DNA of 15,187 nucleotides, taken from NCBI GenBank assembly GCA_039030515.1, contig JBCCEA010000061.1, positions 1-15,187 on the forward strand, given 5' to 3'. A program made the translations under genes and the position numbers. Source of the stretch: Myxococcota bacterium (GTDB taxonomy: Bacteria; Myxococcota_A; Polyangia; Polyangiales; Houyiibacteriaceae). Below the pieces are notes generated by a model, which was not told where the DNA came from, ran no database searches, and saw only the letters and a program-made list of their open reading frames with translations. This document shows positions 1 through 15,187 of the stretch, one piece after another. Numbering within the stretch: the stretch's first letter is position 1; the number at the start of each line of letters is the position of its first letter.

Positions 1-449
1 CGCTTCGAGGGCGCTGGCTCTCTGACATCCCTGGACGGCCGCGGGGGTTGCGACAAATGCACGCCATAGAGCCGCTTACCTTCGATGCTCGTCGCTCAAC
101 GTTCCAAGAAGTACGCCTTCGCTCCTGCGCTTCGAGGGCGCTGGCTCTCTGACATCCCTGGACGGCCGCGGGGGTTGCGACAAATGCACGCCATAGAGCC
201 GCTTACCGTCTCGCGCCTCGTCGTCAGGTACCAATGTGTACCCTCCTCCTCCTCGCCCCAGCGGGCCTCGCTAGACCTGAACGCCCGCTTACCTCCCATG
301 CTCGACGTTCGAAGTAGCAAAACTACTCCTTCACGTCTGCGCGTGCGGGGCGCTGGGCGTTCAAGCCCATCGAGACGCGCTGGTCGGGGGCGCTGGCGCT
401 CTGACATCCCTGAACGGCCGCGGGTGTTTGGGGATGCACGCCATAGAGC
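1..449 (-). repeat. Cluster 1 of ~127-128 nt structured hairpin repeats (REP/REPIN/MITE-like), truncated by the window start
   Basis: Exact 80-bp direct repeat at 1-80 and 128-207 (period 127) and a third diverged copy at 388-449. 84-146 closely matches 2389-2450. 257-384 is an inverted copy of the unit at 2563-2690/2941-3065. Units fold better on the minus strand (G-T wobbles, tandem G.A). Confidence 0.92.
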
Positions 450-538
450 GGGTGAACTCCTGGAGAGGTTTGAATTGTTGCGATAGTCTTGGAGCACCCT
501 TCATTAGAGAGTGGTCTCAGTAACGAGGTGCTCCGGTT

Positions 539-2348: not shown

Positions 2349-3078
2349 CCCAGGGGGCCTATGTCGGCCCAAACAGCTGCTGACCGAAGATGCTCGTCGC
2401 TCAACGTACCTAGAGTACGCCTTCGCTCCTGCGCTTCGAGGGCGCTGGCTGTTTGAACCACCCTAGGCCCCCTGGGGATGTGGTTGCTGAGTCGGCCCAA
2501 ACAGCTGCTGACCGCCTTGCGCCTCGTCGTCGTCAGGTACCCACTCGTATCCTCCTCCTCGGCCCAGCACGTCTCGATGGGTTTGAACGGCCAGCGCCCC
2601 GGAAGCACAGGAGCGCAGGAGTAGTTTCGCTACTTCAAGCTCCGAGCATGGGAGGAAAGCAGGCGTTCAGGCCTAGCGAGGCGTGCTGGGGGGCGCTGGC
2701 TGTTTGAACCACCCTAGGCCCCCTGGGGATGTGGTTGCTGAGTCGGCCCAAACAGCTGCTTGCCGCCTTGCGCTTCGTCGTCGTCAGGTACCCACTCGTA
2801 CCCTCCTTCTCGGCCCAGCGGGCCTGGGTTGGTTGAAACAGCGAGCGCCCCGGAAGCGCGGGAGCGCAGGAGTAGTTTCGCTACTTCAAGCTCCGAGCAT
2901 GGGAGGAAAGCAGCTGTTTGGGCCGACATAGGCCCGTTGGAGCGCGTCTCGATGGGTTTGAACGCCTAGCGCCCCGGAAGCACAGGAGCGCAGGCGTATT
3001 AACGCTACTTCGAACGACGAGCACGGGAGGAAAGCAGGCGTTCAGGCCTAGCGAGGCGTGCTGGGGGGCGCTCGCTGT
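2349..3078. repeat. Cluster 2 of ~127-128 nt structured hairpin repeats (six central hairpins, both orientations, nested)
   Basis: Unit 2349-2476 has a perfect 13-bp terminal inverted repeat CCCAGGGGGCCTA/TAGGCCCCCTGGG. A 70-bp exact direct repeat lies at 2440-2509 and 2691-2760. Plus-strand units are at 2563-2690, 2814-2940 and 2941-3065. Confidence 0.95.
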
Positions 3079-3086
3079 GGGCCGGG

Positions 3087-4820
3087 CTACAAATGTAGGG
3101 GGAACTGCCAGCGGCCATGTAGACCTCGGATATAGGCCCCGAGGGATACAATCGACGCAAGAGAGAGTGATCCGAAGAGCAAAGGTCCAACGGATGCAAA
3201 CAAGGAGTGGGGCACTCCGATGAGCAACCAGACAGTGCTGCCTGAGATCACTGTTAGCGATAACGGCACCCACCATTTCCAGCCTTCTGCCAAGGCATCG
3301 ACCCGGAATCGGCACACAATCCACAATGCGATAACCAAAAGCCCACAGCATTTCGCTGCAAAGAAGAAGGCGGCAAGCAAAGTGCCGTTGCCTGGCTCCA
3401 TTGGGACGGCCCATCCTCCAAAACAGAACGCGACCAGAGTCGCCACTAAAGATGCCAGGTAAAATAGCTCAATCGATGTGCAAAATGAATGTCTGCTGCC
3501 GGTCAGTCCTTTTAGTGATGCAAGGGACAGTATAATTTGCACAAAAAAAGCAGGAATTAGGGCAAGAGCCAAAGGGTTTGAGAAGGCGAACCAGGTCCAC
3601 GGATAGATGTCTTGGCCCCGAACAATCGAGTCGAGGTCTAGCGTTCCTTCGAAAGCCAGCAAAACCACCAGTAGAGCCAATACGGGAAGTAACGGCACTG
3701 TAACGCTCAGAATTCGACGGCAAGCTGATCGCGATTCTGATGATTCCGGCAGAAAGATTCTTTGTCCAGCTCTCATCACAATGCTGCTGATCAGAATCAG
3801 CCCTCCGTCTAATCCGCCTGCTAGGATGTATCCGGAATACGGCAACGCTAGAAAGTAAAAGATCAAAAAGCCTAAGATGGAGATCATTATGCCTAGCTGG
3901 TGCAGGGAAGCACTCCAACCTCTAGTTGTCTTCCGAGAGGCCGACGTGTTGCTCCTTATGCTAGCTGAAGACAGAGCTGATCTTTTGGGTAGTTGCCACA
4001 ATGGTCCTGTTGGAAGAAAACAGAACAGCAAGAAGAGTACTGCCCCAACCAAACCATGGCGAATCGTCTTCGAGCGCTCCTGTTTTTCCGCCGAATAGCC
4101 TGGCAAGGGGACTGATAGCTCCATAGTTGCCGGGGCATCGGGAGCTCTAATCTCGAGGATCGCGAATTCCTTACCGGGAACGGCTACGAAGTCTGAAAAC
4201 GAACGGACTTTCACTCTGTCTATGCTCACGATGGTATCGCCGACCGCAGTGCCGGAGTTTGCTGCACGTCCGTTTGGGTTCTGCTCCGCGATGATAAGCC
4301 CCATGCCCGTCGGATGATCCATCATCGTAACTCCCAAGAAATCAGAGATCTCTCGTGCTTGTTGCGTGCGACCAAGCGCTCGCGAAAGGCGACCCGAGGT
4401 CGTGGGAGTGAAGTCAAGAGTCACGTTTTCTAGCGTCCCTGAAACGGTGCCGCGATTGTCGGCCGCAGAAAAGAACACTCGAATGGAGCCGCGAAAAGTC
4501 ACCCGACCCCCGACGGCATTCACTAGTTCGTTTCCAACCGTAAACTGCAAAACCGACTCAGTTTGAGTGCGACCCTCTGCCTGGGCCTGCACAGCCGTCG
4601 GAAGTGCTCCCGGACGCGCTACCTCACCTTCGAAGCTCACGATGGCGCTTTGGCCTACTGGAAATCCCTCTCCCCAGATCTCTGCAGTTTCTTCAGGTCT
4701 AAGATGATCTGTCGATATCTTATGCAGCAATACAAGTGCGGCGTCCTCTGACAGCTCACATGCTACGAGCGAAACGAGGGATGTTAGTGTGAGCAGATGC
4801 AGCGGAGAAGTTCGGTTCAC
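3087..4820 (-). CDS. putative lipoprotein with PDZ domain fused to a degenerate NuoH (complex I subunit 1)-like multi-TM domain
   Basis: Lipobox LVAC (Cys21). PDZ-like segment GLIIAEQNPNGRAANSGTAVGDTIVSIDRVKV. C-terminal hydrophobic domain with NuoH-like motifs GTLDLDSIVRGQ..PWTWFAFSNPL, FGGWAVP, and RFRVDALAEGWKWWVPLSL. Confidence 0.8.
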   Translation of the reverse strand: MNRTSPLHLLTLTSLVSLVACELSEDAALVLLHKISTDHLRPEETAEIWGEGFPVGQSAIVSFEGEVARPGALPTAVQAQAEGRTQTESVLQFTVGNELVNAVGGRVTFRGSIRVFFSAADNRGTVSGTLENVTLDFTPTTSGRLSRALGRTQQAREISDFLGVTMMDHPTGMGLIIAEQNPNGRAANSGTAVGDTIVSIDRVKVRSFSDFVAVPGKEFAILEIRAPDAPATMELSVPLPGYSAEKQERSKTIRHGLVGAVLFLLFCFLPTGPLWQLPKRSALSSASIRSNTSASRKTTRGWSASLHQLGIMISILGFLIFYFLALPYSGYILAGGLDGGLILISSIVMRAGQRIFLPESSESRSACRRILSVTVPLLPVLALLVVLLAFEGTLDLDSIVRGQDIYPWTWFAFSNPLALALIPAFFVQIILSLASLKGLTGSRHSFCTSIELFYLASLVATLVAFCFGGWAVPMEPGNGTLLAAFFFAAKCCGLLVIALWIVCRFRVDALAEGWKWWVPLSLTVISGSTVWLLIGVPHSLFASVGPLLFGSLSLASIVSLGAYIRGLHGRWQFPLHL

Positions 4821-6946: not shown

Positions 6947-9889
6947 TTAGTGACGCCCCAGGGCCATCTTTGCAGCGCGGTGATCGGGGTTTGCGTTTAG
7001 TGCCTTGGAGAAGGACTCCCTGGCCTCGCGCAGACGCCCATCGAACTGCAGCGCACGACCGTGGGCAACGTGGTAGTCCGCGTTTTGAGGTTGAAGCGCA
7101 ACTGCCTGTGCATAGGCGTCAACGGCTCGTCCCGCTTTACCTCTCTGGAGATAGCAAGCTCCAAGTCCCATGAAACCACCGGCAAATGATGGATCTAGTT
7201 CGGTGAGCTGCTGATACAAGACCGCGGCGTTTGAGTAGCGGCCGGATCGAAACGCGACCAGGGCTTTTCGATGGGTCCGCAGTGCTCTCATGCGCTGTTC
7301 GGGATCACTTTCGACTTGCGCCACGTTACTCGCACCGCGTTCGGCCGGGGTGGTGGTTGCAACGGATTCAAGACGTTCTGTTTCTTGTCCGCTTTGGACT
7401 GCCGATGCCGATTCTGTTTTTGGCGCAGCAGCACGCGTTGTTTTCCTTGCGTCCACCTCTTGTGAACCCACCGGAGCCAAAGATCCCGACAGCTTAGTAG
7501 AATCTAGACTGCTACGTCGCTTGAGCGGAACCTCGCGAGTGGCGGCTGCGAATACTTCGGGGTCGATACGAAGACGATTCCGACCAGGTTGCCGCATCGC
7601 GAAATAAACAATCGCAGCACCGAGTATCGGCCCGATCAAAGCGAGTGCCGCGACCATCAAAAACGCCGATTGAGGAACATACTTGGTTCGAACTCGAGCA
7701 GAGTCGGTCTTTTTTGTGCCGGCCTTCGGCGTCGAAGCGCCTTCTCGAGCCTGAGTAACCGAGGGGCTTGGAGTTTGAGTATTGAGAGATACCGAGCTTG
7801 CCTGTGTCGAACTCACTCGCTCTGCGGACGTGTGCGCCGAAGCGATTTCGGGCTCTACAAGTACCGGCAACGCGGTGGTGAGCTTGTCTTCTCCGGGCTC
7901 TGAACTGGACAAACGCTGACTCGGACGGGACGATCTTGAGTCTTGCGGCTCGGATATCGATGCGTGTTCGGATGCCGGTGATGCGCTCGAAGTGTCGCGT
8001 TCTGTCCCCGACGCCGGCGTCGTAGCTGATGGCCCTGCTTTTACTGGTTCGGCGGTGTGCATGTTTCGCGGCACTGGGGTCACCACGGTTGGTTCGTCCA
8101 AAATCAGAGAGTCGTCTATCCCTGCAGGGTCGAAGCTGTCAGACTGCAGCAGTTGGATGTCTTCTGATGCCGGCTCTGAGAGGTTGTCGAGCCCCGTGCT
8201 ATCGTCTCCCACGCGAGCATCCAAATGTTCCCGATCATCCAAATTTTTTGGTTCACCTGCGTGTTCTGAACGGTCTTTTGTCAGGACTGGAGCGCTTACC
8301 TTCCGGTCGCGGGATGTTGGGTGATCGTCAGATGCTGAGCTGCTCGGCGTTGGTTGGTCTAGTTCGGAACGAGCACGAACCGGGCCCTCGAGCGACAGAC
8401 TTTGAGCCTCGAGCGGCAGACTTTGAGTCTCGATCGGGGGAGTGATGTGGGTCGTCGCTCCAGAGCTTTCGAGGTCTGACTTTGTCGAACCCTTTAGATC
8501 TTGGTAGGACGTTAGATCTTCGTAAGACGGTGCGGCTTCAGCAATAAGAGATGACTCTTTCTCCGGTTCTGAAACGGGCATCTCAGGCGTGGATGATCCC
8601 GGAACTGGTGGGACCGTAGAGCGTGATTTTGCGAGCGGCGGGGGAGTCAAGGATTTCGGCTTGGTCGGCACTGAAAGGCTGGAGCCAGGCGGTGCGGTGG
8701 ACCGAGACTTGGTGAGCGGCGGGGGAGTCGATGATTTCGACTTAGCGGGCAAAGGAGGCGGAGAGGAAGATTGCGGTGCCGCTAGAGATTTTGGCCCATT
8801 TATCGTGGGCCCATTCATAGACTGAGGCGTAACGGAGGAACGTGATTTGGCCGGCAGAGGTGGTGGGGTAGTTCGGCGCTCGACCGCTCCTCCGCCTTGA
8901 CTGTGCACATCCAACTGGCTGGAACGTGAATCCACTTCCATCCATGGATCGTAGAAAGCGGTGATGATTCGAGCTCGAGTCAACTCATTCACCCATGGCT
9001 CAATGAGTCGGTAGGCATGCTCGGCAGACTCGGGACGCTCCTGAGGGTTCTTCGCCAGACAGCGTGAAATCAGTTCGACAAGCCCTTCGGAAATACCTTT
9101 TTCAAGTCGAGGGGGGGACTTTGCCAAGTGGGCTTGAACGACCTGTTGTTCTGGTGTCGTTCCAAAGGGTGGGGCGCCCTGGATGGCTTCGTACAGTAGG
9201 CATGCGAGCGAATAGAGATCGCTGGCAGATCCCTCGAGTTCTCCGCGCAGTTTTTCGGGAGCAACGTAGGGCACGGTTCCCCATGCAGTGACCGAACGGC
9301 CTGTCCCCATCGGTCCGGCGATGCCGGGGTCGATGAGTGCCACATCGCCGAGGTCTTTTGGATCACGTAAAATCACGTGCTGCGGCTTAAGATCCCGATG
9401 CAAAAGGCCCTCGCGATGCAGCTGACCCAGAGCCGCAAGCAGTCCCGCTGCGAGATCGACCGCCTCTTCGGGGTTGAGGGGTGACTCGAGAAGTCGCTGC
9501 GTCAGGCACATCCCTTCGATCCAAGGACGGAAGCACCACAGACGCTTGTTCTTCGCACGATCGGTGAACGCGCCGCACTCCGAGGGAAACGCAACCCAAT
9601 GACTGGTTCGGGTAGATTGGTGGCTCAGTTCCCGTTGAACGCGCTGTCGAACGGCGTCGGTCGCTGCTTCGTAATCCGGAATTACTTTGAGAACTCCGCT
9701 TTCTCCCGACCGCTCAGAGTACGCTCGATACAGGCATCCGCCGGCATGTAGACCTTGGGTGCCGGAAGCAGGTGGCGAATCAGTCGAGACTCGAGCGTCG
9801 ATTTTGAAGCGTTCGAGAATGGAAGGAGGTAGCTCCCATTTTTGCTGACTCTGCGCCATTTCCGGTACTTGAGATGATTCCGAGTTCAT
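6947..9889 (-). CDS. Hanks-type Ser/Thr protein kinase(-like) with Pro/Ser-rich linker, one TM helix and C-terminal TPR domain
   Basis: VLKV, HRDLKPQHV, IDPGI, GTVPYVAPE, SDLYSLACLLYE..G.PPF, CLAKNPQERP; TM segment AFLMVAALALIGPILGAAIVYFAM; TPR motifs (LYQQLTELDPSFAGGFMGLG, YAQAVALQPQNADYHVAHG, FSKALNANPDH). Confidence 0.95.
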   Translation of the reverse strand: MNSESSQVPEMAQSQQKWELPPSILERFKIDARVSTDSPPASGTQGLHAGGCLYRAYSERSGESGVLKVIPDYEAATDAVRQRVQRELSHQSTRTSHWVAFPSECGAFTDRAKNKRLWCFRPWIEGMCLTQRLLESPLNPEEAVDLAAGLLAALGQLHREGLLHRDLKPQHVILRDPKDLGDVALIDPGIAGPMGTGRSVTAWGTVPYVAPEKLRGELEGSASDLYSLACLLYEAIQGAPPFGTTPEQQVVQAHLAKSPPRLEKGISEGLVELISRCLAKNPQERPESAEHAYRLIEPWVNELTRARIITAFYDPWMEVDSRSSQLDVHSQGGGAVERRTTPPPLPAKSRSSVTPQSMNGPTINGPKSLAAPQSSSPPPLPAKSKSSTPPPLTKSRSTAPPGSSLSVPTKPKSLTPPPLAKSRSTVPPVPGSSTPEMPVSEPEKESSLIAEAAPSYEDLTSYQDLKGSTKSDLESSGATTHITPPIETQSLPLEAQSLSLEGPVRARSELDQPTPSSSASDDHPTSRDRKVSAPVLTKDRSEHAGEPKNLDDREHLDARVGDDSTGLDNLSEPASEDIQLLQSDSFDPAGIDDSLILDEPTVVTPVPRNMHTAEPVKAGPSATTPASGTERDTSSASPASEHASISEPQDSRSSRPSQRLSSSEPGEDKLTTALPVLVEPEIASAHTSAERVSSTQASSVSLNTQTPSPSVTQAREGASTPKAGTKKTDSARVRTKYVPQSAFLMVAALALIGPILGAAIVYFAMRQPGRNRLRIDPEVFAAATREVPLKRRSSLDSTKLSGSLAPVGSQEVDARKTTRAAAPKTESASAVQSGQETERLESVATTTPAERGASNVAQVESDPEQRMRALRTHRKALVAFRSGRYSNAAVLYQQLTELDPSFAGGFMGLGACYLQRGKAGRAVDAYAQAVALQPQNADYHVAHGRALQFDGRLREARESFSKALNANPDHRAAKMALGRH

Positions 9890-12399: not shown

Positions 12400-12486
12400 C
12401 CTGTCGCCAACTGCCTGTCGCCAACTGCCTGTCGCCAACTGCCTGTCGTCAACTACCTGTCGTCAACTACCTGTCGTCAACTACCT
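12400..12486. repeat. 6 x 14-bp tandem repeat: (CCTGTCGCCAACTG)3 (CCTGTCGTCAACTA)3
   Basis: Units start at 12400, 12414, 12428, 12442, 12456 and 12470, plus a partial CCT. Confidence 0.97.
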
Positions 12487-12652
12487 TGCGATTACTTCGA
12501 TGCTATTTTCCCGCCGCGGCGCGCGTCAACGTCCTCTTTGGCCGGATTCAAACGCGCTCCTCTAGCCCAAAGAATATCCGATCATGCCTTGGCCCCGTGG
12601 GTACCTCCAAACATTGCTGGACGTCGAGGCAATTGCGTGGTTACCCAGTTGC

Positions 12653-14189: not shown

Positions 14190-15041
14190 ATGATATCTTC
14201 GGCAAACGCTTCGAGTGCAACCGCCGAGTCCAAGAATCTCGGTTCTCAACTGTCTCGGCAGTTTGGTTCTCCAACGTACCAGCCTCCGGTACTTCCGAAA
14301 ATTGCGCTTGAAGTCCATGCACTTACCCATCGAAGCGACATCACTTTTAGGGAGGTTGTGGACACGCTTGCGATGGACCCATTGCTTGCCGGTGGCGTTC
14401 TAAGCCGGGCTCAGTCGGCGATCTTTACCGCGCGTATTCCGCCTCGCACTTTACTCGAAGCGGTTCGGCGATTGGGGCTGCGTACCACTCGTGATATCGT
14501 TTGGGAGATAGCGCTCCGCATGCGCGTGTTTGTTGCACCAGGATACGTCGAGCCAGTGGCAGCGTTGACTCGTCACTCGGCCATCACCGCCCATCTCTGC
14601 CGCACCGTATGCGCTCGAGCAGGTCTAGAGATGCCGCATGCGTTTCTTTGCGGACTCCTGCACAACGTCGGATTGCTTGCCAGTCTGGTGCTCGTCACGG
14701 AAATGTTCGACTTCTCCAACCTACCTGCCGTCACAGATATCGCGACGGGACTCGAGCCTCTGCATGAGGAGGCTGGCGGTCAGTTGGCGCGAATCTGGGG
14801 ACTAGGGGAAGAGATACAGCGAGGCGTCGAGCAACATCACCACCCAAGAAGCCTGGAGGGCTATTTGGTTTGCCTTGCCTCCACGATCGCTGCCGAGGAA
14901 TGCGGTACAGAGGAACTGCCTCGTATCGAAGAGCACGACACCGACTTAATCGACGCTGCCCGAGTGGCCCTCGGACTTTCCGATGCAGATTTAGAGGCGC
15001 TTCGGATGGATGCTGTTCATATCGGAACCGTGGTTCGCTAA
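14190..15041 (+). CDS. HDOD domain-containing signal transduction protein
   Basis: PPVLPKIALEV, DPLLAGGVLSRAQSA, AVRRLG, HS..TA, AFLCGLLHNVG, HEEAG..LARIWGL, HHHP: HDOD pattern. Confidence 0.93.
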   Translation: MISSANASSATAESKNLGSQLSRQFGSPTYQPPVLPKIALEVHALTHRSDITFREVVDTLAMDPLLAGGVLSRAQSAIFTARIPPRTLLEAVRRLGLRTTRDIVWEIALRMRVFVAPGYVEPVAALTRHSAITAHLCRTVCARAGLEMPHAFLCGLLHNVGLLASLVLVTEMFDFSNLPAVTDIATGLEPLHEEAGGQLARIWGLGEEIQRGVEQHHHPRSLEGYLVCLASTIAAEECGTEELPRIEEHDTDLIDAARVALGLSDADLEALRMDAVHIGTVVR

Positions 15042-15187
15042 CCCAGCGGGCCTATGTCGGCCCAAACAGCTGCTTTCCTCCTCGCTCGTCGTCGTCAGGT
15101 ACCTTAAGTACCCTCGTCCTCCTCGCCACGGGGGCGCTAGCTGTTTGAACCAACCTAGACCCGCTGGGGGGTGGTAGTTGAGTCGGC
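15042..15187 (-). repeat. Cluster 3 of the structured hairpin repeat family (one full unit 15042-15168 plus start of the next), truncated by the window end
   Basis: Terminal inverted repeat CCCAGCGGG/CCCGCTGGG, inner CAAACAGC/GCTGTTTG, central GGTAC-CTTAA-GTACC. Begins at the base after the HDOD TAA stop. 15169-15187 resembles the linker at 2477-2496. Confidence 0.93.

Follow-up and report, generated by a model that had tools for sequence, protein, structure and literature searches.

How ERIC-type repeats move has been an open question since 1990. ERICs are said, in work by De Gregorio (2005) and Sharp (1997), to lie in a preferential orientation beside stop codons and to harbour insertions. 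In the available extracts of PMC2229807 and PMC2759123, ERIC is classed as a TA-duplicating MITE, and its mobility is hypothesised, the mechanism being unproven. The repeat analysed here works like ERIC. It shares with ERIC/IRU/RU-1 a length of 127 nt, a single rod of which one strand folds better (9/9 E. coli copies), an apical stem-loop of similar sequence that starts at the same position (50), an opposite-strand stop codon at position 126-133 (in 4/9 E. coli copies), paired but variable termini and, in some of its subfamilies, TA flanks. It differs in its core sequence, in a longer and sequence-free outer stem, in the lack of TA ends in the source genome, in its large nested and tandem arrays, and in its hosts, since known ERICs are restricted to enterobacteria and close relatives whereas the new element occurs in Myxococcota or Polyangia records.

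Integron attC sites are structure-defined, one-strand hairpins located right after a stop codon and folding on the antisense strand. The new element shares all of these features, but it has a fixed length, forms no cassette arrays, is devoid of attC end motifs and lies behind core housekeeping genes, and no integron integrase was found in the source genome. As for REP and REPIN sequences, PMC3733652 and PMC3116915, in the parts at hand, define them by a short conserved REP, an unpaired GTAG/CGTC tag and inverted doublets. The extragenic hairpins, the tandem clusters, the insertion into or beside existing copies and the termini able to supply a stop codon are common to REPINs and the REP-RAYT system (same parts of PMC3116915 and PMC3733652) and to the new element; in the latter, however, there is no doublet of short conserved REPs, the GTAG is inside a paired stem instead of an unpaired tag, and none of the RAYT-like genes searched had a unit next to it. 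Bcr1 of the Bacillus cereus group and CIR of Caulobacter are likewise mobile-looking repeats of 110-155 bp, and bcr1 also has a fold kept by compensatory changes; compared by their description in the portions available of PMC3184786 and PMC2229807, they are two-arm cruciforms vs. a single rod here, and bcr1 has 5-bp direct repeats.

No description of this repeat family was found in the literature searched, although an earlier listing is possible, e.g. in MITE-survey supplements such as PMC11602168. A search of Rfam gave no family matching the element, only tRNA at gathering score and two chance matches (E 1.4-1.9). The element is a real, structure-constrained, ERIC-like repeat, as seen in its fold, core, fixed length, strand bias, stop-codon placement and nesting. 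With a probability of about 70%, we regard it as a mobile repeat of ERIC/IRU type, non-coding and non-autonomous, whose defining feature is its fold and not its terminal sequence.

Units in the window and anatomy of the repeat

The window, i.e. the whole 15,187-nt stretch of DNA that was analysed, is contig C61 of genome G000, hereafter the source genome (assembly of 4.08 Mb, 57% G+C, 85% complete). The units that it carries, and their parts, are the following:

1..43, minus strand: beginning of a further tandem unit, truncated by the contig end
44..171, minus strand: tandem unit with a linker tail; its arms belong to a third subfamily
172..256, minus strand: 3' part of the host unit split by 257..384; a C/A-rich linker replaces the complete right arm
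257..384, minus strand: complete 128-nt unit, inserted in the same orientation in the core of another unit
287..303, minus strand: 3' strand of the conserved core (unit positions 82-98); IS110 target elsewhere in the genome
304..337, minus strand: flagged region, i.e. middle helix, purine-rich loop and apical stem-loop of unit 257..384 (from sequence and fold)
341..354, minus strand: 5' strand of the conserved core (unit positions 31-44); insertion site for other copies
385..450, minus strand: 5' portion of the host split by 257..384, comprising left arm and half of the core, plus a remnant of an upstream copy
2349..2476, minus strand: complete terminal unit of cluster 2349-3078
2477..2562, minus strand: 3' portion of a split host (unit positions ~41-114, then linker); the matching 5' portion is 2691-2727
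2563..2690, plus strand: complete unit, inserted in opposite orientation in the core of host 2477-2562/2691-2727
2691..2727, minus strand: 5' portion of the host split by 2563..2690, comprising left arm and half of the core
2728..2813, minus strand: 3' portion and linker of a second split host
2814..2940, plus strand: complete unit, first of two inserts in the second split host
2941..3065, plus strand: second insert in the second split host, head to tail with 2814..2940
15042..15168, minus strand: complete unit; its 3' end directly adjoins the TAA (15039-15041) of a plus-strand HDOD gene
15169..15187, minus strand: linker and right-arm piece of the upstream tandem copy, cut by the contig end

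After insert 2941-3065, a short host remnant precedes the stop codon of a minus-strand gene at 3087, and both same- and opposite-orientation nestings are present in the window. For its five complete units, the fold z-scores are -7.7 to -9.6 on one strand vs. -3.9 to -5.9 on the other, and the same strand again folds better with DNA folding parameters. The window also contains two intergenic short tandem repeats unrelated to the element, at 12400-12497 and 956-1019 (14 and 19 bp, respectively), and, at 6947-9889 on the minus strand, a Ser/Thr kinase that has a long linker of low complexity and TPR repeats at its C-terminus. The genes of the window appear myxobacterial in our judgement.

As a whole, the element is a rod of ~127 nt (range 125-130 nt, mode 127) folding from its 5' end to its 3' end, and is made of a 29-bp outer stem, a core formed by a two-sided internal loop, a purine-rich middle helix of five pairs and an apical stem-loop. 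The core, AGCGCCC..GC facing GAGG.AAGC, is nearly invariant in sequence, and the TAC/GTA pairs of the apical stem are near-constant. The arms of the outer stem are free in sequence, while from genus to genus their pairing, strand asymmetry and length are preserved; the terminal sequence is the least conserved part, even inside one genome, with terminal pairs varying freely. The stem boundary is sharp: among 67 units of other genomes, Watson-Crick pairing falls from 93% to 40% between 29 and 30 bp from the core, the percentages in the source genome being 86, 70 and 47% at 28, 29 and 30 bp, respectively. The middle helix of the flagged region is the weakest part, being 70-77% paired, with all five pairs formed in 48 of the 126 unique units of the source genome (133 near full-length matches minus six misoriented or divergent rows and one duplicate) and purine-purine mismatches in many units. 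In genome G007 (loci L011-L039), most units carry, outside the hairpin, a common 5' leader that is truncated to varying extents.

Covariation in the stem and its origin

The earlier note had compared repeat copies of the window and proposed that structure rather than sequence is under selection. A direct check of the sequence located all the strings that it quoted, at the positions given. Between unit 257-384 on the minus strand (304-337) and unit 2563-2690 on the plus strand (2610-2643), the middle helix passes from GACGT/ACGTC to GGAGC/GCTCC with three double changes, and the apical stem GGAGTAG/CTACTTC differs from GGCGTAC/GTACGTT (2403-2421) by two double changes plus one G-C to G.T change. 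The three pairs of termini said to co-vary are also real. However, the two middle-helix forms are subfamily states, carried by 17 and 14 of the 126 unique units; since the cited changes thus represent few inherited subfamily events, and since termini partly mirror host bases, neither is clean evidence of selection.

In an alignment of 36 hand-picked diverse units, 90.4% of the cells pair and 39 of the 49 pairs have changes on both sides; none of 500 shuffled controls reached these values, and slid registers gave 34-40%. For 67 distinct units in a model-fitted alignment, which is biased towards structure, the values are 89.6% and 45/49 pairs. Wobble cells are asymmetric between strands, with G.T outnumbering A.C by 500 vs. 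60 in 89 complete units of the source genome and, after dereplication at 75% arm identity, by 76 vs. 6 in 33 units, which indicates that the fold of one strand is maintained. Comparing nearest-neighbour copies, 137 single vs. 7 compensatory double changes were counted in the source genome (56 pairs), and 75 vs. 22 in other genomes (35 pairs).

These data bear on the possibility that covariation is a mere by-product of template switching or gene conversion within the hairpin, the fold itself being unselected. Some units do have perfect Watson-Crick arms, left ends sometimes copy host bases, and compensatory doubles make up 22 of the 98 stem differences among close units outside the source genome. 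Yet conversion is strand-symmetric and erases mismatches, so that it cannot be the sole cause given the G.T bias (76 vs. 6, a ratio to which strand-specific deamination may contribute); differences between close copies are mostly one-sided, which also argues against template switching alone, and the internal loops are invariant and the length fixed. Template switching as the sole cause, the outcome that the earlier note had set against its own reading, is thus largely refuted by biased wobbles, persistent internal loops and one-sided differences, and we hold an unselected fold to be highly improbable. The proposal that structure and not sequence is selected stands for the arms, where sequence is free and pairing, strand asymmetry and length are kept, but not for the whole element, as the core and the apical TAC/GTA are nearly invariant. 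The constraint on the fold most likely stems from the element's own spread rather than from a host RNA function.

Distribution, arrays and insertion sites

An iterated profile found 231 matches in 87 clusters of the source genome, 133 of them near full length. Units occupy 50 of its 150 contig ends, so that the repeat also accounts for breaks in this assembly. A covariance model built from 36 units had matches in 52 of 88 genomes of the family (7 of 18 genera) and in 18 of 150 genomes of the phylum. The repeat is dispersed and young in the source genome, and patchy among its relatives. Plain hairpins score up to 34 bits with this full model, and its weak matches can be plain hairpins; distant matches were therefore inspected and a core model leaving out the greater part of the outer stem was built, which had matches in 25 of the 150 phylum genomes. 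Searches with the core pattern retrieved 34 stretches from records whose titles name Myxococcota or Polyangia, as well as a 1-kb contig with the label Zixiibacteriota, neither of them added to the genome counts above, and more than 123 stretches from metagenomes. Core patterns had no matches in viral contigs, apex-only patterns gave 10 matches, none of which was a full rod, and BLAST of four units against plasmids returned short chance matches only. Concerning variants, one of these apex-only matches (L457:330-490) has both the apex and the middle helix of the family inside a different, more A+T-rich repeat, and distant variants at L147, L149, L163 and L164 are located inside larger inverted repeats resembling MITE shells, two of which end in CTAG.

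Clusters are built with a polarity. A complete copy stands at the 3' extremity, the copies upstream of it break off near position 114 and run into a short linker, and the first of the series is often truncated close to the core. Self-insertion at the core was found in 21 of the 126 unique units, 14 in opposite and 7 in the same orientation. Linkers are variable and T-poor, and the upstream partial copies match the local unit. Such arrays, with an intact 3' end and 5'-truncated copies, are what a bacterial SINE-like element might leave behind, the RNA of the folding strand being reverse-transcribed from its 3' end after nick-priming near a stop codon, and template jumps producing truncated tandem copies separated by non-element linkers. 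This possibility corresponds to the RNA branch of our preferred reading. The wobble-rich stems, the linker composition, the local match of the partial copies and the absence of replication-strand bias (see below) agree with it, and a retrotransposed msDNA-like repeat has been proposed in a myxobacterium, judging from titles cited in PMC6868368. The reverse transcriptase data given in the next section weigh against it, and we consider it possible though unlikely.

An IS110-family element (G000:C3:161424-162726) is inserted exactly in the 3' core strand of a repeat, and further traces are a copy end at C4:1-600 and, near C21:39580-39660, a remnant. The upstream non-coding end of this element contains a stem-enclosed loop carrying both halves of the repeat-core target; by analogy with the target-binding loop of the bridge RNA, as described in the accessible part of PMC11208160, it may be a target loop directed at this repeat. 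The small contigs C71, C73 and C74 of G000 carry other IS-like transposases, whose translations resemble those of IS110 and IS1380.

According to our own gene calls, 63 of 81 array 3' ends face an opposite-strand stop codon (null 43%), and 40 of 81 overlap a stop codon or lie at most 10 nt from it, vs. a null of 2.1% that excludes overlaps and therefore flatters the contrast. Array 5' ends have no stop-codon bias (22 vs. 20). For units of other genomes, a stop codon is found 26-33 nt from the core in 51 of 64 cases, or 33 of 45 without the reductase site described below, and for metagenome units 23-33 nt from the core in 48 of 71, the 5' side giving 14 of 64. All three stop codons are used at the 3' ends of the element. 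Leading- and lagging-strand ends are equally numerous (29 vs. 28, with 27 clusters of weak skew unscored), and an IS608-type lagging-strand model was rejected on this count.

A site shared within genus g3 lies at the end of a gene identified from its translation as a predicted ribonucleotide reductase gene. A complete unit is present there in 24 of 35 distinct loci; the remaining 11 are either empty or reduced to a remnant, and the units at this position belong to different subfamilies. The left end mirrors the last codon of the host gene in 20 of the 24 units, although these genomes are related and the mirroring may thus reflect few events. Evidence for movement consists of filled vs. empty sites across species, with no excision or insertion event seen; insertion joints in four DNA contig sets of one study are confounded by other copies. 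As a rule, the genes neighbouring units are core or housekeeping genes. Judging from their flanks, units also occur in rRNA-operon spacers and beside tRNA genes (L146, L166, L161, L376, L407 and L368), folding on the transcribed strand, one of them being placed directly before the 23S rRNA start.

The long survival of units at a single gene end across a genus would also be compatible with a benefit to the host. The element could then be a host-selected RNA element (a terminator, a stability element or an antisense buffer between convergent genes) spread only by local duplication and gene conversion. Clusters are indeed enriched between convergent genes (15 of 37, vs. 468 of 2512 intergenic regions), units with an intact fold persist at one gene end in many species, some units are on the transcribed strand of rRNA or tRNA spacers, and the portion available of PMC2229807 describes an orientation-dependent effect of ERIC on mRNA stability. 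Nevertheless, the mRNA of the adjacent gene carries the weaker-folding strand, empty sites occur within the same genus, no Rfam family matches the element, and nested self-insertions together with a burst of more than 200 copies are hard to fit with a host function, which makes a purely host-selected element improbable.

As for the ends of the element, a subfamily of 23 metagenome units has the form TA-[122 nt]-TA, and TA-flanked termini also occur in G007; they are absent from the source genome, whose units end in neither TA nor a fixed duplication, and from the reductase site. A target duplication is clear only in some subfamilies. An ordinary MITE, whose terminal inverted repeats are read by a DDE transposase (with a TA or YTAR target, and with its own transposase for each subfamily), would account for the TA-flanked subfamilies, TA being rare outside stop codons in G+C-rich DNA, and ERIC itself is a TA-duplicating MITE by its classification in the extracts of PMC2229807 and PMC2759123 mentioned above. 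On the other hand, the terminal sequence is the least conserved part of the element even within one genome, TGA stops are used too, the orientation is biased, and IS630-type genes, the DDE family surveyed, do not track the repeat. We regard an ordinary MITE as quite improbable.

Search for a mobilising enzyme, proposed mode of spread and relation to ERIC

No enzyme tracking the repeat was found among Y1_Tnp, RVT_1, DDE_3, the integron integrase and RAYT-like proteins. Reverse transcriptases are present in 31 of the 88 family genomes, but were not found in G000, G009 and G015; they occur in 8 of the 55 genomes of a genus where 43 carry the repeat, and several repeat-rich genomes of 99-100% completeness gave no Pfam RVT_1 match. 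Near 12 reverse transcriptase loci, only two core-less plain hairpins scored, and no reverse transcriptase was found linked to the repeat. The units also lack the msr/msd layout of a retron. IS630-type DDE genes were detected in 20 of the 88 genomes, and not in G000, G007 and G015. RAYT-like Y1 proteins are more widespread (73 of the 88 genomes, repeat-free genera included), and were not found by this query in two repeat-bearing genera. No unit was located near the 59 Y1 loci searched (0/29 and 0/30), and no core-bearing match at six more. The source genome has a RAYT-like Y1 protein missed by the Pfam search, in a frame of 330 aa at G000:C48:3142-4131, with no unit within ~700 nt. One IS200 tnpA was seen near a unit, at a single metagenome locus (L353). 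No match above the TIGR02249 cut-off for the integron integrase was obtained in G000, and, this genome being 85% complete, a partner gene could be missing from it. Finally, 138 of 248 candidate neighbouring ORFs were scanned, yielding four mobile-element proteins, most others being housekeeping or unassigned.

Returning to the non-autonomous mobile repeat defined by its fold, we propose that an enzyme acting in trans would bind the core and apex of a folded single strand and would set the ends at a fixed distance, as a ruler. The 3' end would be joined at gene ends opened by transcription, and fill-in synthesis would complete the other side, sometimes copying a few host bases into the left arm. 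Copies losing the fold would stop spreading, and compensatory changes would arise for that reason. Given this model, an intermediate of single-stranded DNA, handled by an HUH/Y1-type or host nuclease, has somewhat better than even odds, and an RNA intermediate copied by a polymerase slightly less than even ones.

The family separates the features that a mover must read (core, apex, stem length and one strand) from the arm and terminal sequences that it ignores. Self-insertions mark likely cut sites, and both filled and empty sites are available for testing mobility; through this family, the question of ERIC-type mobility becomes experimentally testable.

Comparisons with ERIC itself gave contrasted results. 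With nhmmer, nothing significant was obtained between the element and ERIC, and the core model recovered no ERIC in E. coli K-12 (best E 0.76; ERIC loci at E >= 0.17). Eleven repeated weak matches of the core model in E. coli were rejected, as they look like one chance match within a multicopy coding sequence that we take to be IS5. The full model matched 8 of 9 ERICs end to end and on the right strand, at 12-24 bits, a range within the 34 bits reached by plain hairpins. The central alignment with ERIC scored 19.2, vs. 10.7 +/- 1.3 for pair-shuffled ERIC, and only 444 of 80,717 other hairpin apices outscored the median ERIC apex with a profile built from the family. Common descent of the element and ERIC appears marginally favoured. 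In a broader and more speculative scheme, which we find rather unlikely, ERIC would be one branch of a cross-phylum superfamily of ~127-nt rods, whose enzyme would read the core and apex, measure the stem and carry out target-primed synthesis at gene ends exposed by translation stops, possibly through an RNA intermediate (a bacterial equivalent of SINEs), the source genome representing a recent burst that exposes the cut sites. Two viral contigs, L275 and L277, carry (at about 249-376) A+T-rich rods of 127 nt whose apex is exactly that of ERIC but whose arms are not; L277 has, in addition, a core resembling that of the new family, and both are possible links between ERIC and this family.
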